A stretch of DNA of 61,293 bases, filler included, from Sandaracinaceae bacterium (GTDB taxonomy: Bacteria > Myxococcota_A > Polyangia > Polyangiales > JADJQN01), in the NCBI GenBank assembly GCA_947483975.1. It is 8 parts of 8 records of this genome, joined end to end, with 100 filler letters (N's around TTAATTAATTAA, not from the genome) between each part and the next. Parts side by side here need not be neighbours in the genome. Positions count along the whole stretch, not along the records: positions 38,637 to 46,173 come from CANKOL010000265.1; 7 more parts are not named here. One strand, 5' to 3'. A model generated the notes under the pieces. It was not told where the DNA came from, searched no databases, and saw only the letters and a program-made list of their open reading frames with translations. A program made the position numbers and the translations under genes. Below, piece after piece: positions 38,537 through 45,384 of this stretch (the stretch's first letter is position 1; each line of letters begins with the position of its first letter).

Positions 38537-38636
38537 NNNNNNNNNNNNNNNNNNNNNNNNNNNNNNNNNNNNNNNNNNNNTTAATTAATTAANNNNNNNN
38601 NNNNNNNNNNNNNNNNNNNNNNNNNNNNNNNNNNNN
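38537..38636. other. Artificial contig linker
   Basis: N-run/TTAATTAATTAA/N-run. Confidence 0.99.
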
Positions 38637-38700
38637 AGGCGGCTCAGGCGGCGGCGGCGCAGGTGGCGGCGGCGACGCCGCGTGAAACGGTGCGGCGCGC

Positions 38701-39324
38701 TCAGGCGCCGCAGTAGACCGTGATCACGCGAGGAGCGCTCGTGCGGGGGAGCACGTAGCGCACCCCGCAGAGGACACGCGTGCCGTCCTTCGGGACGGGC
38801 GGCGCCTCGGTGGCGGTCAGGACGAGCGCTCGGCTCGCGAGGTCGAGCCCGAGCGGCAGCCACACCTCTGGTGCGAAAGTCGCCCGCGCCATCGCGACGT
38901 CGAAAGGCGCGCCGGCGACCGCGGGCGCGCGTGGATCGAGCTTGCCCTCGCGCACGACGACGCGCCCGGCGAGCCCAGCGAGCGTCCCCACGGCCGTGCG
39001 GAGAAACGCGACGCGCTTCTGGAGCGGCTCGAGCAGCACCAGCGAGATGTCGGGGCGCAACAGCGCGAGCGGCAACGCGGGAGCCCCCGCGCCAGAGCCC
39101 ACATCGAGCACGCGCGCACCGCGCGGCACGAGCGCCTCGTCCGCGAGCATCAGGGCGTCTGCGAAGAGCACCTCGCAGAGCTGCTCAGCGGAGCGCGCCG
39201 CCGTCAGGTCGATGCGCGCGTTCCACTGCGCGACGAGCGCGCTGAACGCCTCGAGCTGTTTGGCAGCCTCGGGGTCGAGCGTCGCCTGGAGCGAAACGGC
39301 GAGCCTCTCGAGCTCCGGGCTCAA
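38701..39324 (-). CDS. rsmG: 16S rRNA (guanine-N7)-methyltransferase RsmG/GidB
   Basis: WNARIDLTA, DVGSGAGAP, EPLQKRVAFL, MARA. TTG start overlaps the upstream stop. Confidence 0.85.
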   Translation of the reverse strand: MSPELERLAVSLQATLDPEAAKQLEAFSALVAQWNARIDLTAARSAEQLCEVLFADALMLADEALVPRGARVLDVGSGAGAPALPLALLRPDISLVLLEPLQKRVAFLRTAVGTLAGLAGRVVVREGKLDPRAPAVAGAPFDVAMARATFAPEVWLPLGLDLASRALVLTATEAPPVPKDGTRVLCGVRYVLPRTSAPRVITVYCGA

Positions 39325-40019
39325 TGGAGCCTCCCGTCGCGACGGCGCTTCTCCGCCTCTCTCGAGGCCTCGGCGATCGCCTCCTTGATCAGGCGGTCCG
39401 CCTCGGCGTCGTCGATCACCGGCGACTGACGCCGCCCCTGAATGGAGCGCGGCGGCTTGGACGCCCGCGGCGGATTCGGCGCCGGCACGCGGACGGCGGC
39501 GGGCGTCGAGCGACGCGGGCGGCCCCGCTTGAACCGCCCCTTGGCGAGCATCCCGACCAGCGGCCACGCCTCCGCGCCGTCGAGCGGTGGGATCGGCAGC
39601 AGGTTGAGCGCGATGATGAACGCGTTCGTCCAGACGAAGGTGTCGAGCAGCTGCGCCAAGAGCGCCGAGCGCACCGGCGGCAGCGCCGCGAGCGTGATCA
39701 CCGTCAGCAGCAGCAAGATCGCCTGCGCGAGCACGCCTCCCCAGGCGATGATCGCGCGCCACTTCGGCGAGGGCACGCCGTACCACCGGCAGAGCCCGCC
39801 GAAGCCGAGTACGTCGATCGACACCACCTGCATCCGCGCCGCGCGGACGAGCACGGCGTGCCCTAGCTCGTGCAAGAGCACGATCAGGAAGAAGCCGAGC
39901 CACGCCCCGGGGAGAAACGCGAAACGGGTGAATATCAGCGCGCCGAGCGGCGTGGACCAGTGCACGCGCACCTGCGCCCCGCGAAAGCGCGCGATCGTGA
40001 GGTAACCGCGGTCGAACAC
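39321..40019 (-). CDS. Site-2 protease (peptidase M50 family)
   Basis: HELGH zinc motif, NLLPIPPLDG, multiple TMs; GTG start at 40019. Confidence 0.9.
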   Translation of the reverse strand: MFDRGYLTIARFRGAQVRVHWSTPLGALIFTRFAFLPGAWLGFFLIVLLHELGHAVLVRAARMQVVSIDVLGFGGLCRWYGVPSPKWRAIIAWGGVLAQAILLLLTVITLAALPPVRSALLAQLLDTFVWTNAFIIALNLLPIPPLDGAEAWPLVGMLAKGRFKRGRPRRSTPAAVRVPAPNPPRASKPPRSIQGRRQSPVIDDAEADRLIKEAIAEASREAEKRRRDGRLH

Positions 40020-40091
40020 CCCGGCAGTATGCGCGGGAATAGCCGCCGCGCCGCAGCGGTTCGCGCCGAGCATGGGCGGACACACACCCCC

Positions 40092-40119
40092 TTGCCGTGC
40101 CGCACGACGGCTGTATGCT
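40092..40119 (+). promoter_or_regulatory. Putative sigma70 promoter for the leader ORF/dsbA unit
   Basis: TTGCCG-N16-TATGCT. Confidence 0.4.
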
Positions 40120-40137
40120 CCCGCCCACCACCGCCCG

Positions 40138-40566
40138 ATGACCCGCCCAGCCCTCGCCACGCTCGCCCTCGTCGGGCTCTCGCTCGCGCTGCCGCACACC
40201 GCGGCAGCCGAAGAGGCGATGTGCGGCCTGCGCTCGACGGTCGTTGTTCTCGAGGCCTCTGAGCTCGAGGCGGCGCTGACGCCGGAGGTCTTCGGGGCGT
40301 TCTCGGCGGCGGAGGTCGCGCCGCCGGCGACGCCGAGCGACCCCGGCGAGATCCTCTGGTGCGCCTCGTCGAACGACCCGCGCTGCGCGCCCGCGCACAC
40401 CGGCACCGGCGGCACGGTGGAGCTGCGCGGCGGCGGAGCCGTCTTCGTGCTCCCGTCAGCCTATCCGCCGATCGCCGACTCGCCCGCCTCGACGTTACGG
40501 GACGCGAGCCAACGCGCGCGCTCCCGCAGCGGCGTACGACGCTCTCTCGACCGCCCGCCCCGCTGA
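40138..40566 (+). CDS. Small exported Cys-containing protein ending in RPPR (candidate regulatory leader/arrest peptide)
   Basis: Sec signal MTRPALATLALVGLSLALPHTAAA; three Cys (MCG, WCASSNDPRC); Pro-rich linker; C-terminus GVRRSLDRPPR*. Confidence 0.7.
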   Translation: MTRPALATLALVGLSLALPHTAAAEEAMCGLRSTVVVLEASELEAALTPEVFGAFSAAEVAPPATPSDPGEILWCASSNDPRCAPAHTGTGGTVELRGGGAVFVLPSAYPPIADSPASTLRDASQRARSRSGVRRSLDRPPR

Positions 40567-40571
40567 GCCCT

Positions 40572-40593
40572 CGCGGACCCTGCGTCCTTTTTT
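40572..40593 (+). terminator. Weak hairpin plus U6 tract directly after the leader ORF (possible attenuator)
   Basis: GGAC-CCTGC-GTCC-TTTTTT starting about 9 nt after the stop codon. Confidence 0.4.
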
Positions 40594-40829
40594 GCGCGCG
40601 CCCCGCGGCTCGCGTAGACGACGCGTCCGCTCCCGCTCGCTGGCTCCCCAGACTCCGCGCGTGGCCTCCAGGCCGTGCGCAGAACCGCGGTCCTCGTTCG
40701 GCGCGCCGGCCCCCAGTAGGTCGGCTCTCCGGACCCGGAGCGCGGATCGCTCAGGCTCGATCTCTCCATTTCTTCATTGGTTTTCGCAGCGACGACCGCA
40801 CGAGCGGCGCCGCGTCTCAAGGAGTGTCC

Positions 40830-42905
40830 ATGTCCAAAGGTTCAGCAATAACGGCCATCCTGATCGCCTTCATCGGCGGTCTGGCGATCGGCAGTCTCAT
40901 CTCGGGTGGAAAGGGGTCCGACGAGGACACCATCGCCGCTGAAGGCGCTGAAGGCGCCGCTGGCGCCGAAGCAGCCGACGCGCCCGGCGCCGGCGGTCCC
41001 GCCGAGCAGGGCGGCCCGGAGCGCTTCCGCGTGCCGGTCACCGCCGACCAGCCCAGCAAGGGCCCGGCCGACGCGCTCGTGACGATCGTCGAGTTCAGCG
41101 ACTTCGAGTGCCCCTTCTGCTCGCGCGTCGAGCCGACGCTCGCGCAGATCATGAACGACTACCGCGGCAAGGTCCGCATCGTGTGGCGCAACGCGCCGCT
41201 CCCGTTCCACCAGAGCGCGACCCCCGCCGCGATGGCCGCCGTCGAGGCGTTCCAGCAGGGTGGCAGCGACAAGTTCTGGCGCATCCACGACCTGATGTAC
41301 GCCAACCAGCGCGCGCTCGCGCGCACCGACCTCGAGAACTACGCCCAGCAGGCGGGCCTCGACATGGCGAAGTTCCGCGCCGCGCTCGACGGCAACACGC
41401 ACCGCGCGAACATCGACGCGGACCTCGCCCTCGCGGCGCAGGTCGGCGCGAACGGCACGCCGAACTTCTTCATCAACGGCCGCCAGCTCACGGGCGCGCA
41501 GCCGATCGACGCGTTCAAGACCGTGATCGACGACGAGCTCCGTCGCGCCGAGGCGCTCGTCGCCACGGGCGTCGCTCGCAACCGCGTCTACGCGCAGCTC
41601 ACCCGCAACGGCCGCACCTCGCCCGCCCCCGCGCCCGGCGCTGCCCCCGGCGCCGCCCCCGGCGCGCCCCAGCCCGCTCGTCAGGCGCCGGACCCGGCGG
41701 CCGTCTACCGCGTGCCGGTCGGCGCCTCGCCCGTCAAGGGCCCGGCGGACGCGCTCGTCACCGTCGTCATCGTCTCGGACTTCCAGTGTCCCTTCTGCAG
41801 CCGCGTCGAGCCGACCCTGACGCAGCTCGCGACCGACTACGGCCGTGACATCCGCTTCGTCTGGAAGAACAACCCGCTGCCCTTCCACAACAACGCGATG
41901 AACGCCGCGAACCTCGCGATGTTCGCCAACCAGACCGGCAAGTTCTGGCAGGCGCACGACCTGCTCTTCGCCAACCAGCAGGCGCTCGAGATCGACAAGC
42001 TCGTCGAGTACGCGACGCAGCTCGGCCTCAACGGCCCCGCCGCCCGCGCCGCGATGACCAACAACCAGTTCCAGGCGTCGATCCAGGCGGACATGGACCT
42101 CGCGCGCTCGCTCGGCGCGTCGGGCACGCCGTCCTTCTTCATCAACGGCCGCAACCTCCGCGGCGCGCAGCCGCTCGAGGCCTTCAAGGCGCTCGTCGAC
42201 GAAGAGCTCGCGAAGGCGCGCGCGAAGGTCGCCGCCGGCACCCCCCGCGCGGGCGTCTACGAGGCGACCACCCGCAACGGCGCGACCAGCGCGCAGACGA
42301 TCGCCGCCCCCGGCGCGCCCCCCGGCGCACCGCCCGCCGCCGCGCCGCCCGATGCGGACCGCGTCTACAACATCCCGGTCCTCGCGACCGCGCCGAAGAA
42401 GGGCGGCCGCGCCGCCCGCGTCGTCATCCAGCAGTTCTCCGACTTCCAGTGCCCCTTCTGCTCGCGCGTCGAGCCGACGGTCGACCAGGTCATGCGCGAG
42501 TACGGCGACCGCGTTCAGTTCGTGTGGCGCAACTTCCCGCTGCCGTTCCACAACAACGCGATGCCCGCGGCCGAGGCTGCGGCCGAGGTCATGGCGCAGG
42601 GCGGCGACGCCAAGTTCTGGGCGTTCCACAACCTGCTCTTCACGAACCAGCAGACGATCGCGCGCGCGGACCTCGAGCGCTTCGCGGCCCAGGTCGGCGG
42701 CATCAACATGGCGCGCTTCACGGCGGCGCTCGACAACCACACGCACAAGGCGGCCATCGAGGCGGACATCGCCGCGGTGACGGCGGCGGGCGCGCAGATC
42801 GGCACCCCGTCCTTCTTCATCAACGGCCGCCTCCTTCAGGGCGCGCAGCCGTACGAGCAGTTCAAGGCCGCGATCGACCGCGCCCTCGCCGCTCCCGCTC
42901 ACTGA
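40830..42905 (+). CDS. Membrane-anchored DsbA-family protein with three thioredoxin domains
   Basis: AAGGAG RBS; N-terminal TM; three copies of SDF(E/Q)CPFCSRVEPT...PLPFH...GTP(N/S)FFINGR...GAQP. Confidence 0.92.
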   Translation: MSKGSAITAILIAFIGGLAIGSLISGGKGSDEDTIAAEGAEGAAGAEAADAPGAGGPAEQGGPERFRVPVTADQPSKGPADALVTIVEFSDFECPFCSRVEPTLAQIMNDYRGKVRIVWRNAPLPFHQSATPAAMAAVEAFQQGGSDKFWRIHDLMYANQRALARTDLENYAQQAGLDMAKFRAALDGNTHRANIDADLALAAQVGANGTPNFFINGRQLTGAQPIDAFKTVIDDELRRAEALVATGVARNRVYAQLTRNGRTSPAPAPGAAPGAAPGAPQPARQAPDPAAVYRVPVGASPVKGPADALVTVVIVSDFQCPFCSRVEPTLTQLATDYGRDIRFVWKNNPLPFHNNAMNAANLAMFANQTGKFWQAHDLLFANQQALEIDKLVEYATQLGLNGPAARAAMTNNQFQASIQADMDLARSLGASGTPSFFINGRNLRGAQPLEAFKALVDEELAKARAKVAAGTPRAGVYEATTRNGATSAQTIAAPGAPPGAPPAAAPPDADRVYNIPVLATAPKKGGRAARVVIQQFSDFQCPFCSRVEPTVDQVMREYGDRVQFVWRNFPLPFHNNAMPAAEAAAEVMAQGGDAKFWAFHNLLFTNQQTIARADLERFAAQVGGINMARFTAALDNHTHKAAIEADIAAVTAAGAQIGTPSFFINGRLLQGAQPYEQFKAAIDRALAAPAH

Positions 42906-42942
42906 TCCTCGTTTAGTTCCAAGTCCTTAGGGACGAGTCCAG

Positions 42943-42983
42943 CGAAGCCGTATCCCCGCGAGGGGGTACGGCTTCGTCCTTTT
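42943..42983 (+). terminator. Intrinsic terminator after the dsbA-like gene
   Basis: 15-bp stem CGAAGCCGTATCCCC-GCGA-GGGGGTACGGCTTCG followed by TCCTTTT. Confidence 0.85.
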
Positions 42984-43032
42984 GGGGCGGCGCACGAGGT
43001 GTGACGTGAGCGCACAGCGTAGGTGCGCGGGG

Positions 43033-43062
43033 TTGACACAGGAATCACAGATGATCTAGGCT
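43033..43062 (+). promoter_or_regulatory. Putative sigma70 promoter
   Basis: TTGACA-N18-TAGGCT, about 130 nt upstream of ATG 43191. Confidence 0.55.
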
Positions 43063-43190
43063 GGAACCCGGCGTGGTTTCCAGGGCATAGCCCCCTCCAC
43101 CACGTCCGCTGGCACTGTCATCGCAGAAGAAGTTCGAAGCCCGGGCCAGACTTTCCGGCGCCCAGAGGCTTCCCGTCCGAGGATTTTCTT

Positions 43191-44084
43191 ATGGCGAAGA
43201 ACAGGGCGGCTGAGCGGCTGCCGACGGTCGAAGAGCTTCACTTCCGTAGTGACAGCGCTTTTCTGTGCCTGCTGCTGAACCGACGCACCAAGCTGATCCG
43301 GGTGATCGACTTCCGCGCGGGCGCCCTGCCCGCCAAGCGGCTCTTCATCCAGTCGATCGCGCAGCGCGAGGGCGTCGAGAAGGTGATCGCGCTCGTCGAA
43401 AAAGACGAGGTCGCGTCGTGGACCCGCGTCGGCTTCGTGCGCGAGGGGACCATCCCCGGCTTCTACAAGCGCTCCGACGGGCACCTCTGTGGCTGTGTCA
43501 TCGGTGATCGCACCGCGTCCATCGAGGTGACGGACGAGGCGCTGAAGAACGCCGAGAAGACGATCGTCGCCGCCAAGAAGAACGCCAAGGACCTCGACGA
43601 GGAGATCCGCGGCATCACGCTGCGAGGGGTCGAGGCGCAGGTAGCGCTCGCCGCGCGGGACGAAGCCTGGGCGAAGGGCGAGGGCCTCGGAGGCTTCGAC
43701 CCCTTTGGCCGCGGCGTGCTGCGGCTGTTTCTCGAGTGCTCGACGAAGAAGAGCCGCGCCAACTACATCTCCGCGGAGTTCCAAGACTGCTTCGGGCACG
43801 CGCTGATCGAGGTGCTGCGCTCGCCGCGAGACGAGGGCGAGCGCCTCGCGACCGCGGCGGGGCTGCGCGCCTTCGCAGAGGAGCTGAAGCGCCGGCAGAT
43901 CGTCTCGGCGTTCGGCTTCGGGCCAGCGGACGACCAAGAGCTCTCGACCGCGTACCTCGCGGCGGGCTTTCGCAAGACGGGGCTGCTCGCGCGCGGCATT
44001 CAGGTCGGGAACACCCGACGCGACGCGATCCTCTGGTCGAGGAAGCTCCTGAATCCTGCGGGCGAGCCGGGGCTCGACGACTGA
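43191..44084 (+). CDS. GNAT-fold protein resembling beta-lysine N-acetyltransferase (AblB/YodP)
   Basis: GAGG RBS; EKVIALV...GFVREGTIPGFY and C-terminal AGFRKTGLL...DAILWSRKL. Family call from recalled motifs only. Confidence 0.6.
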   Translation: MAKNRAAERLPTVEELHFRSDSAFLCLLLNRRTKLIRVIDFRAGALPAKRLFIQSIAQREGVEKVIALVEKDEVASWTRVGFVREGTIPGFYKRSDGHLCGCVIGDRTASIEVTDEALKNAEKTIVAAKKNAKDLDEEIRGITLRGVEAQVALAARDEAWAKGEGLGGFDPFGRGVLRLFLECSTKKSRANYISAEFQDCFGHALIEVLRSPRDEGERLATAAGLRAFAEELKRRQIVSAFGFGPADDQELSTAYLAAGFRKTGLLARGIQVGNTRRDAILWSRKLLNPAGEPGLDD

Positions 44085-44142: not shown

Positions 44143-44556
44143 ATGCGCACGCGCGAAGACATCGAAGCCTATCTCCTGCGGACGGGGCAGCCCTACGAGG
44201 AGATCGCGCCAGAGACCTGGCTGGTCCGCGACACCGGCGGGCGCGCCGGGCCGATCATCGTCCGCTTCGACGGCGACATCGTGCTCTTTCGGCTGAAGGT
44301 GCTCGCGCTCGACGAGCACGTGCACCGCGAGGCGCTGTTTCAGCGCCTGCTCGAGCTGAACGCGACGGATATGGTGCACGGCGCCTACGGCATCGCGGAC
44401 GGCGCGGTCGTGCTGACGTGCTCTTTGCGCGCGGAGAACCTCGACTACAGCGAGTTCGCCGGGACGCTCGACGACTTCACGCTCGCGCTCAGCAAGCACT
44501 ACGAATCGCTCGGCGGACTGCGCCGCTCCGAGCCGCCGCCGCCCGCGGGCGCCTGA
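44143..44556 (+). CDS. CesT/YbjN-like (type III chaperone-fold) protein
   Basis: Acidic 137-aa protein with LFQRLLELNATDMVHGAYGI and LRAENLDYSEF. Confidence 0.75.
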   Translation: MRTREDIEAYLLRTGQPYEEIAPETWLVRDTGGRAGPIIVRFDGDIVLFRLKVLALDEHVHREALFQRLLELNATDMVHGAYGIADGAVVLTCSLRAENLDYSEFAGTLDDFTLALSKHYESLGGLRRSEPPPPAGA

Positions 44557-44586
44557 ACCCAGAAGCTCAACGGAGACTAGAGGACC

Positions 44587-45384
44587 ATGGGCTTCTTCGG
44601 GCGACTCGCGCAGCTCATCAAGAGCAACTTGAACGATCTCATCAGCCGCTCCGAGGACCCGGAGAAGATGCTGGTGCAGGTCATCCTCGAGATGAACACC
44701 CAGCTCGTCGAGGCGAAGAAGCAGGTCGCCGTCGCGATCGCCGACGAGAAGCGGCTGCAAAAGCAGTATCAGAACGAAGCCTCCATCGCCGCCGAGTGGG
44801 AGAAGAAGGCGATGCTCGCGGTGCGCGCGGGCGACGACGCGCTCGCCAAGGAGGCGCTGCTCCGGAAGAAGGAGCACGACAGCCTCGCCGCGACCTTCAA
44901 GGATCAGTGGGAGAAGCAGCTCGCCGCGGTCAACGCGCTGAAGACTGCGCTCCGCGCGCTGAACAACAAGATCGAGGAAGCGAAGCGCAAGAAGAACGTC
45001 CTCCTCGCGCGGAAGCGCCGCGCGGAGGCGATGAAGCAGATTCAGAACACGATGAGTGGGCTGAACGATCAGAGCGCCTTCGAGACGTTCGATCGGATGG
45101 CGCAGAAGATCGATCAGATCGAGGCCGAGGCCGAGGCCGGCGCCGAGCTCAGCGAGGAGTACTCGGGCGATGTGCTGAAGCACAAGTTCAGCCAGCTCGA
45201 GGCGACGAGCGGCGCGGACGCGGACCTCGAGGAGCTGAAGCGCAAGATGGGCGTCGTGCCAGCCAAGCCGGCGGTCGCGACGCGCGTCGAGGCAGTGGCC
45301 GAGGAAGCCGAGCCGACCGCCGAGGAGATGGCGGAGCTCGACGCGGCGCTCGACGCCTTGAAACAGCGCGAAGCCAAGGGCTGA
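44587..45384 (+). CDS. pspA: PspA/IM30 family protein
   Basis: MGFFGRLAQLIKSNLNDLISRSEDPEKML, AVRAGDDALAKEAL, FDRMAQKI, LEELKRKM. Confidence 0.93.
   Translation: MGFFGRLAQLIKSNLNDLISRSEDPEKMLVQVILEMNTQLVEAKKQVAVAIADEKRLQKQYQNEASIAAEWEKKAMLAVRAGDDALAKEALLRKKEHDSLAATFKDQWEKQLAAVNALKTALRALNNKIEEAKRKKNVLLARKRRAEAMKQIQNTMSGLNDQSAFETFDRMAQKIDQIEAEAEAGAELSEEYSGDVLKHKFSQLEATSGADADLEELKRKMGVVPAKPAVATRVEAVAEEAEPTAEEMAELDAALDALKQREAKG

Follow-up and report, generated by a model that had tools for sequence, protein, structure and literature searches.

An exported leader peptide with a conserved Cys pair and Arg-Pro-Pro core precedes dsbA in the Polyangiales and may be an arrest-type sensor of oxidative folding

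Results

A small exported protein is encoded upstream of a three-domain DsbA

The DNA analyzed here, referred to as the window, is a stretch of 61,293 nucleotides (nt) joined from eight parts of the genome assembly GCA_947483975.1 of a Sandaracinaceae bacterium (phylum Myxococcota, order Polyangiales) and has a G+C content of ~72%. Within it, a small open reading frame (ORF) lies upstream of, and in the same orientation as, a gene for a DsbA-like oxidoreductase (denoted dsbA); the features of the locus are compiled in Table 1. The product of the small ORF (denoted the leader) begins with the sequence MTRPALATLALVGLSLALPHTAAA|EE, which was assigned as a signal peptide by eye and by heuristic, together with a helix in the structure model. 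It contains three Cys residues, at positions 29, 75 and 83, is rich in Pro, Ala, Ser and Gly beyond the Cys pair, and ends in RRSLDRPPR directly before a TGA stop codon.

The G+C content at third codon positions (GC3) is 0.895 in the leader and 0.759 in the spacer between leader and dsbA, a difference that alone is no proof of coding, as an antisense ORF shares the same third positions. Better evidence comes from 10 homologous protein clusters with 47-99% identity to the leader, on account of which we regard it as a real gene. An AlphaFold2 model built from 19 sequences yielded a mean predicted local distance difference test score (pLDDT) of 57.4 and a predicted template modelling score of 0.20, with only the signal helix (residues 4-28) and one short helix predicted; the pLDDT of the ESM Atlas model was 0.43. 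The leader matched no Pfam family at E ≤ 0.1, and thus neither DUF2946 nor SecM (PF06558). By language-model features the nearest named clusters were DUF2946/CzcI, DUF2946 and SecM. Each scored 0.88 and thereby fell short of the bar of the tool, so that this likeness is a weak lead only.

The dsbA product consists of an N-terminal hydrophobic anchor and three Thioredoxin_4/DSBA domains (PF13462, E = 7.9e-83). Together with the cis-Pro GTP motifs at residues 209, 432 and 658, these give it the features of the DsbA/Thioredoxin_4 family. The best Protein Data Bank (PDB) matches of its domains are of the actinobacterial DsbA/MdbA type (7unn, 4pwo; E about 1e-19 to 1e-20), followed by relatives such as BdbD and ScsC (4gxz, 6nen, 6mhh, 4xvw), the latter at E 1e-13 to 1e-14. 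The stem that follows dsbA has a calculated energy of -32.6 kcal/mol alone (centroid) or -34.6 kcal/mol (minimum-energy fold) and a z-score of -4.39, and none of 200 shuffled sequences folded as well; it was missed by the consensus terminator scan, its T-run being only four long. This stem provides a picture of a real terminator in this genome and likely marks the end of the transcription unit.

Table 1. Features of the leader-dsbA locus (positions in the window)
Feature	Position	Strand	Details
Leader ORF	40138-40566	+	142 residues and stop codon; exported, Cys-bearing, predicted unstructured
Sec-type signal peptide, residues 1-24	40138-40209	+	Arg3 in n-region, hydrophobic core, AAA before EE; assigned by eye
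Cys29, directly past signal peptide	40222-40224	+	CxC at the same place in most family members
WCx7C motif WCASSNDPRC, residues 74-83 (Cys75, Cys83)	40357-40386	+	Putative sensed element
Variable linker (length ruler)	40387-40530	+	Cys83 to Pro140, 57 residues
Putative arrest module G-x-x-R-S-L-D-R-P-P-R	40531-40563	+	Core R139-P140-P141 at 40552-40560
R139-P140-P141-R142	40552-40563	+	TGA at 40564-40566
Leader-dsbA spacer	40567-40829	+	263 nt
Larger predicted stem-loop	40562-40640	+	Starts in stop codon; U6 in internal loop
Small hairpin and U6	40572-40593	+	GGAC 40575-40578, GTCC 40584-40587, T6 40588-40593; 9 nt past stop
Near-invariant block before dsbA	40786-40829	+	Hairpin 40786-40816, Shine-Dalgarno (SD) sequence AAGGAG 40819-40824, possible SD:AUG mini-hairpin
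Membrane-anchored three-domain DsbA-like oxidoreductase	40830-42905	+	691 residues; CPFC at residues 94, 320 and 541
Intrinsic-terminator-like 16-bp perfect stem and UCCUUUUGGGG	42942-42988	+	Likely end of transcription unit

The Cys pair and the Arg-Pro-Pro core are invariant in the leader family

A profile of the leader matched 15 of 61 related genomes and 136 of 401 genomes sampled from the order. In a phylum-wide sample of 401 genomes it yielded 28 matches, every one within the same order. With the profile restricted to the C-terminal module, the matches in the order rose to 205 of 401 genomes, including 48 weak matches in one family (f17). We examined 90 loci from 90 genomes, namely the window's own, 29 from the searches and 60 further ones that were fetched; one locus (L035) stems from an unpublished genome, and without it each locus count drops by one.

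The strict pattern WCx(5-8)C...RPP...stop was present at 81 of the 90 loci. Five further loci have Tyr, Met, Val or Leu in place of the Trp, and a relaxed pattern (Cx7C, linker, RPP) takes in 87 loci in total; the three loci devoid of the module are the weakest profile matches (E 5.8e-6 to 8.2e-4). Among the 87, the C-x7-C spacing is exact in 84, the preceding Trp is present in 82 and R-P-P in every one. The residue immediately before RPP is acidic in 85 (Glu in 58, Asp in 27), the next one upstream is Leu, Val or Ile in 84, and Arg and Gly occupy the third and seventh positions before RPP in 57 and 55 loci, respectively. Directly past Pro-Pro, Arg is found in 73 loci and Gln in 8. The stop codon follows RPP after one residue in 21 loci and after two in 53 (74 of 87 together), with 3-17 intervening residues in the other 13; these tails vary (R, RA, RG, RV, up to 17 residues), which argues against recognition of a free C-terminus. 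Across the loci RPP is encoded with the full set of six Arg and four Pro codons, which points to selection on the peptide and not on the RNA.

Two alignments delimit the conserved parts of the protein. In 11 close sequences (alignment A1), SLDRPPR, ILWC.S..DPRC.PA and the AAA of the signal peptide are invariant and the hydrophobic core is conserved, while the sequence between the invariant blocks drifts. In 77 sequences (alignment A6), only the two Cys residues and R-P-P are invariant, and ~40 consecutive columns lack any residue that reaches 50%. With their invariance in 87 loci, the protein motifs of the leader are far beyond chance. Most members also carry [D/E]-C-x-C past the signal peptide (e.g. 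L020, L021, L035 and L040), which brings them to at least four Cys residues; the window's genus has a single Cys in its place. Divergent leaders that the profile missed were found in two families, with Cx7C located 60 or 58 residues from the core and C-termini reading WRPPAP* or WRPPSA* (the asterisk denotes the stop codon). Another divergent ORF with a signal peptide (L159, genome G035), likewise missed by the profiles, ends in ...ARLDRPPR-stop 165 nt before dsbA.

Codon usage sets the core apart. At 34 of 73 loci, one of the rare codons CCA and CCT encodes the first Pro of RPP (40555-40557 in the window), compared to 183 of 2737 Pro codons (7%) in dsbA and 93 of 709 (13%) in the rest of the leader; the Arg codon of RPP is also enriched in rare codons (29 of 73 loci versus 19%). 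Kinship inflates the count for Pro, yet all four codons occur at this site within one genus. Rare codons at RPP may indicate slow decoding at a putative pause site.

The leader is linked to dsbA

A multi-domain dsbA gene follows the leader on the same strand at 84 of the 87 loci (tblastn with one DsbA domain as query). At the other three, the sequence ends 257-347 nt past the leader stop codon, and dsbA is therefore present at all 84 loci that could be tested. An M50-like metallopeptidase gene (HELGH; 39321-40073, minus strand), which in the window diverges from the leader with its start 64 nt from the leader ATG, is upstream of the leader at only 2 of 15 loci, both in the same genus. As dsbA is always linked and the M50 gene rarely, the conserved unit comprises the leader and dsbA. 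Families without leader profile matches still carry multi-domain dsbA genes. Several multi-domain DsbA paralogues, some of them in tandem, occur in families f16 and f17 (L160, L161, L163, L166; genomes G044, G097 and G035).

A preliminary description of this DNA, made from the sequence alone, had reported a 142-residue ORF with a Sec-type signal, three Cys residues including those of WCASSNDPRC, and a C-terminal LDRPPR, followed by a 263-nt intergenic region and a co-oriented, triple-domain dsbA gene. Apart from minor corrections, all of these elements are present in the sequence (the signal by eye), and three CPFC motifs bear out the three domains. Its comparative predictions also held: the signal, Cys pair and terminal RPP(R) are retained while the linker sequence varies (87 of 90 loci), and dsbA is downstream wherever the sequence extends far enough.

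A length ruler connects the Cys pair to the Arg-Pro-Pro core

In the 87 loci the second Cys of Cx7C and the first Pro of RPP are 53-62 residues apart, with distances of 55 (23 loci), 56 (15 loci), 57 (23 loci) and 58 residues (9 loci) accounting for 70 of them. It is the length and not the sequence of the linker that is maintained: in the 23 loci with a distance of 57, mean identity is 12% over 42 central linker positions versus 61% in the two motifs. The stretch from the signal peptide to Cx7C ranges from ~50 to 200 residues without any length constraint (start codons were assigned heuristically).

The path from the peptidyl transferase centre (PTC) to the periplasmic exit of SecYEG has been estimated at ~50 extended residues over 160 Å (PMC7513700) or, by another count, at ~47 residues, of which 30 are in the tunnel and 17 cross the membrane (PMC9973294, discussion). 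Measured against this path of ~47-50 residues, a ruler of 55-58 residues would place Cx7C just clear of the translocon while RPP is being synthesized. This would be the first point at which DsbA could reach the Cys pair. In MifM, the spacer between the engaged element and the arrest site is similarly narrow (median 54), and distances to Sec signals are variable (Fujiwara 2024, PMC10987492, section 12). By analogy, the fixed ruler and the variable signal distance of the leader appear to be the same signature as that of known monitoring substrates.

The spacer RNA contains lineage-specific hairpins

The spacer measures 88-542 nt (median ~191) in the 73 loci with a placeable dsbA start. In the window, the GGAC/GTCC hairpin has a 4-bp stem, or a 5-bp alternative according to the scan, with energies of -4.7 to -5.7 kcal/mol and a z-score of -0.79; 40 of 200 shuffled sequences folded as well, and the hairpin is no better than chance. 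A terminator scan returned four terminator-like sites versus 1.2 ± 1.2 expected. The fold of 40555-40640 is more stable (-40.1 kcal/mol, z = -2.97, 2 of 200 shuffled sequences as good), and the stem-loop that it contains is not conserved in relatives. The preliminary description had taken GGAC/GTCC and U6 for an attenuator masked by a stalled ribosome. The hairpin and U tract are indeed present 9 nt past the stop codon; as a conserved attenuator they were rejected, given the weak stem, a U6 tract confined to this locus and a real terminator of quite different appearance. They could still contribute in this one species. The U6 tract is absent from four other distinct sequences of the clade, one from a genome of the same genus and three from metagenome relatives.

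The block directly before dsbA hardly varies in the columns of an alignment of five sequences of the window's clade (A4, 55 nt before the ATG) and displays no compensatory change. Taking all loci together, the first 40 nt past the stop codon are somewhat more structured than expected from their composition (mean z -0.81, 27% of loci below -1.5); mean z is about -0.5 in the remaining spacer and +0.05 in coding sequence. Minimum-free-energy folds from the second Pro codon onward were uninformative in 87 loci, the G+C-rich RNA pairing everywhere. A SecM-like pairing of the arrest region with the ribosome-binding region of dsbA was rejected as a general mechanism, with a mean RNAduplex z-score of +0.23.

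The clearest RNA structure was seen in one genus (g11; 41 distinct spacers of ~100 nt), which has three supported hairpins: pairing holds in 98.6% of 773 cells, both sides have changed in 9 of 19 pairs, none of 500 shuffled alignments reaches this, and slid controls are 37-61% paired. Hairpin 1 consists of 8 G+C-rich pairs and begins 5 nt past the stop codon, at the edge of a ribosome holding the last codons; hairpin 2 is short, A+U-rich and followed by a U-rich stretch; and hairpin 3 ends 1 nt before GGAGG, with the SD sequence unpaired in the consensus fold. In the same genus (L082-L141, alignment A3, columns 1-8 and 68-76), the stretch GARCGRCC in the codons for Glu-Arg-Pro is complementary to GGTTYGTTC, the 5' arm of hairpin 2. 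In this alternative pairing 91.4% of cells are paired versus 23-60% in slid controls, without compensatory change. A paused ribosome could block it, an idea derived from the very same sequences. The hairpins of the conserved block and those of g11 might belong to an attenuator, to an element for processing or stability of the RNA, or to a promoter-proximal leader.

In the window (40830-40850) and in L082-L141, the first codons of dsbA, ATG AGT/TCC AAA GGT TCA, end in A or T and are conserved at the nucleotide level, and the GC3 of the remaining gene is ~0.95. The sequence ATGAGTAAAGGT at the dsbA start is identical in 40 of the 41 g11 spacers, and one has ATGAATAAAGGT.

A sigma-70 promoter scan of 39900-43100 returned no sites, a result of little information for a myxobacterium, and no sigma-54-type or extracytoplasmic-function-type spacing was seen in the A+T-rich blocks when these were inspected by eye. 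Metatranscriptome contigs cover parts of dsbA: those of X18 span 40803-40951 and 41535-41685 with 0 differences, and that of X19 spans 40665-40927 with 13 differences. No contig from the two libraries lies on the leader ORF; such contigs are uninformative on transcript ends, levels and absence, and the libraries may have contained DNA.

The leader shares the layout of known arrest-type leaders

In small secreted or membrane proteins, RAPP/RGPP motifs are concentrated towards the C-terminus, and in an in-silico survey the genes listed behind such small ORFs include DsbA-family and thioredoxin genes (Fujiwara et al. 2025, EMBO J, PMC12992588). One of the encoded peptides, SLIV_27375 of Streptomyces lividans, which has four predicted transmembrane segments and a conserved Cys pair, lies upstream of a thioredoxin-domain gene and causes arrest in PURE systems and in a Bacillus subtilis reporter (PMC12992588). 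The leader resembles the RAPP/RGPP type (ApdA, ApdP, ApcA, the 'RQH family' and SLIV_27375; PMC12992588, PMC10987492) in that a small protein with a localization signal carries an Arg-Pro-Pro-containing motif near its C-terminus, preceded by a variable region, with DsbA-family or thioredoxin genes downstream (in silico). It also has a Cys pair, as does SLIV_27375. The core is different: [D/E]-R-P-P-[R/Q] has no Ala or Gly between Arg and Pro-Pro, and none of the 87 loci has RAPP or RGPP. Set against a RAPP-like definition, in which the core (R-A/G-P-P, or RAGP/RAPG) lies within ~15 residues of the end, the leader has a small ORF, an N-terminal signal (by eye and heuristic), a position upstream of and co-oriented with dsbA (84 of 84 loci) and an RPP close to the end, but not the core sequence itself. 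It is moreover a signal-peptide protein without predicted fold, unlike the multi-spanning SLIV_27375, and the sections of PMC12992588 considered describe no fixed Cys-to-motif ruler for the RAPP/RGPP set.

CutF of Rhodobacter capsulatus and CruR of Bordetella pertussis (PMC9973294; bioRxiv 10.1101/2025.02.05.636593) are likewise encoded by small ORFs upstream of, and co-oriented with, the gene they regulate, and combine a Sec signal (CutF) with a Cys motif whose distance to a Pro-rich, Arg-flanked stalling motif is fixed; they sense on the periplasmic side during export, as proposed here for the leader. CruR acts through Rho with a spacer of 162 nt, and a long spacer before the next gene is also a property of the leader. 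Both kinds of protein have a PP motif within the last 15 residues. The leader differs in having Cx7C (plus an N-terminal CxC) instead of CxxxC, a distance of 55-58 instead of 45 residues, and the core RPP; it does not match the DUF2946 profile (PF11162), its next gene encodes DsbA instead of a metal-homeostasis protein, and we found no stem shielding an SD sequence in the duplex test or in the g11 consensus fold; a possible SD:AUG mini-hairpin in the window's clade shows no variation.

SecM, VemP and MifM correspond to the proposed design in that an exported or inserted nascent chain is arrested a few codons before the stop and feeds back on the next gene, the feedback acting on the nascent chain itself. 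The leader has no sequence relation to them (no Pfam hit) and no stem joining the arrest region to the SD sequence of the next gene, and the monitored activity would be disulfide formation, not translocation or insertion. In leaders of the TnaC and SpeFL type, a spacer of >100 nt follows the leader ORF, and transcription of the next gene depends on a ribosome held where the ORF ends. These leaders are cytoplasmic, and their stalling takes place at the stop codon while a small-molecule ligand occupies the tunnel. The long spacer is alike, whereas the last residues of the Polyangiales leader vary, its peptide is predicted to be exported and its spacer has no composition typical of a Rho-utilization (rut) site. 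By its defining features the family is outside both the DUF2946 and the RAPP/RGPP sets, yet it appears to have the same working layout; to this extent the likeness to exported arrest-type leaders that the preliminary description had pointed out is upheld.

The same description knew of no arrest peptide that regulates DsbA. In the literature searched we found no experimental case either, but its statement is not quite right, given the DsbA-family genes listed in the RAPP/RGPP survey (PMC12992588). Fujiwara et al. (EMBO J 2025) have also already published the idea of an oxidative-folding sensor, as a hypothesis on RAPP/RGPP peptides, and the reviewer file of PMC12992588 mentions sensors of 'oxidative folding capacity'.

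Discussion

The comparative data suggest, in our estimate with about even confidence, that the leader is a cis-acting, exported arrest-type sensor, that is, a monitoring substrate, of oxidative folding that controls dsbA. The signal peptide would target the nascent chain to SecYEG, and elongation would pause as the ribosome meets [L/V][D/E]-R-P-P-R close to the stop codon. During the pause, Cx7C would lie 55-58 residues from the PTC, freshly outside the periplasmic mouth of the translocon, together with the N-terminal Cys or CxC. If active DsbA oxidizes these residues, the resulting disulfide loop or the DsbA-bound chain might pull on the nascent chain, or block its sliding back, and so release the pause. 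If oxidizing capacity is short, the ribosome would remain close to the ORF end, which would alter what becomes of the spacer RNA and raise dsbA expression. We infer the pause, its release by oxidation and the sign of control from the anatomy, conservation, length ruler and gene linkage described above. A physical precedent favors this reading: disulfides that form in the periplasm in a DsbA-dependent manner exert force on the SecM arrest peptide and lower its stalling (Elfageih et al. 2020, PMC7513700). More tentatively, and in our view with a somewhat less than even chance, the leader could be a natural force-sensing monitor, in which DsbA-catalyzed disulfide formation at Cx7C, possibly to CxC, pulls to restart translation, and by which the cell titrates its own DsbA.

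Several observations weigh against a monitoring substrate of oxidative folding. No conserved RNA route from the pause to dsbA emerged from the pairing, footprint-fold, U-tract and rut tests. RNAduplex z-scores of the arrest region with the dsbA ribosome-binding region, relative to shuffled sequences, were below -2 at none of 73 loci; in footprint-constrained spacer folds of 14 loci, SD accessibility went up in 4, down in 4 and was unchanged in 6; the run of six T residues was present only at the window's locus and at none of 13 others; and no C-rich, G-poor, rut-like bubble was seen past the stop codon across loci. At all loci the 80 nt that precede dsbA have a relatively high A+T content, consistent with a possible independent promoter. 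Related genomes are not independent, so that the counts overstate the number of separate events, and the divergent L159 lacks Cx7C at ~57 residues, its Cys residues being 36 and 65 residues before the Pro. The kinship of the dsbA domains with the DsbA/MdbA, ScsC and BdbD group means that the Cys residues could sense a metal instead, and ScsC is associated with copper tolerance. Finally, the R-P-P core differs from the tested RAPP, RGPP, RAGP and RAPG motifs, and the searched supplements of PMC12992588 contain no ERPP, DRPP, RPPR or RPPP entries; we found no data on [D/E]RPPR.

Among the alternatives, the three-domain DsbA might simply have the small protein as a secreted partner or substrate, for example as a client, an inhibitor or a redox relay, with [D/E]RPPR serving as a binding or processing motif and no stalling involved; the two genes would then lie together on account of their joint function. 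Strict synteny by itself is no proof of regulation in cis, the spacer lengths and the A+T-rich stretch before dsbA would fit separate promoters, and the lack of RNA contigs on the leader in two libraries is a hint at most, as contigs cannot show absence. We nevertheless consider a partner protein unlikely: no fold is predicted for the leader, a linker of fixed length with so little sequence identity is hard to square with a folded partner, RPP stays 1-2 residues from the stop codon while the tails vary, which speaks against C-terminal recognition, and the first Pro codon tends to be rare.

Alternatively, the leader could be of the same arrest type but sense a metal such as copper through its Cys residues (CxC plus Cx7C), as do CutF and CruR; metal binding at the translocon exit would then prolong the pause and induce a ScsC-like copper-stress isomerase. 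The design of CutF, with its Sec signal, a Cys motif fixed at 45 residues from a Pro-rich C-terminus and regulation of the next gene (PMC9973294), offers a template for such a sensor, and the ScsC matches of the DsbA domains and the nearest named Atlas clusters, which include DUF2946/CzcI (a lead only, as said), point in the same direction. On the other hand, Pfam gives no DUF2946 match, the DsbA/MdbA-type PDB structures outrank ScsC, and no copper gene was found among the neighbors of leader and dsbA that were checked. The distance of 55-58 instead of 45 residues would moreover put the Cys residues outside and not inside the SecY vestibule, according to published length estimates. A metal sensor therefore also strikes us as a doubtful explanation.

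The masking of the GGAC/GTCC hairpin by a ribosome paused at RPPR, with failure of the hairpin-U6 terminator and read-through into dsbA in this genome, is compatible with a monitoring substrate (so that the likelihoods given here need not add up to certainty) and draws on the position of hairpin and U6 6-9 nt past the stop, where a ribosome whose P site contains Arg142 or Pro141 would reach the 5' arm, on the stems soon past the stop codon at many loci and on the covarying hairpin 5 nt past it in one genus, but it is quite improbable in view of the 4-5 bp stem of -4.7 kcal/mol, a best local fold that places U6 in an internal loop, the absence of U6 from 13 other loci and four close relatives, and the contrast to the 16-bp stem of the terminator past dsbA.

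If a sensor of oxidative folding is confirmed, the principle of SecM, MifM and VemP would extend from protein localization to disulfide-bond formation. The monitoring substrates known to date are reporters of export or membrane insertion of proteins, and the leader family would address a later folding step. Sources of releasing force outside localization pathways, and arrest that reports on later folding steps, are named as an open question in the work of Fujiwara et al. (PMC12992588); the leader, if it acts as proposed, would supply one such source of pulling force. With its invariant three-residue core, its Cys pair, a spacer conserved in length only and a single target gene, the family represents an unusually clean test case, and between about one third and one half of the genomes sampled from the order carry it. 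Motif searches limited to RAPP and RGPP miss such arrest-like leaders. The analysis also flags a small unannotated gene that is 'hypothetical' in, or missed by, annotation pipelines.

Neighboring genes

A run of N at about 38580-38640 joins two contigs in the window, and the contig of the leader, C265 of a genome in 524 contigs, starts near 38637. For the ORF at 43023-44084 no Pfam family was matched. It is followed on the plus strand (44143-45384) by a gene related to the CesT/Tir chaperones (PF22550, E = 6.9e-19) and then a PspA/IM30 gene (E = 3.9e-47), both of them envelope-stress genes a short way downstream of dsbA.

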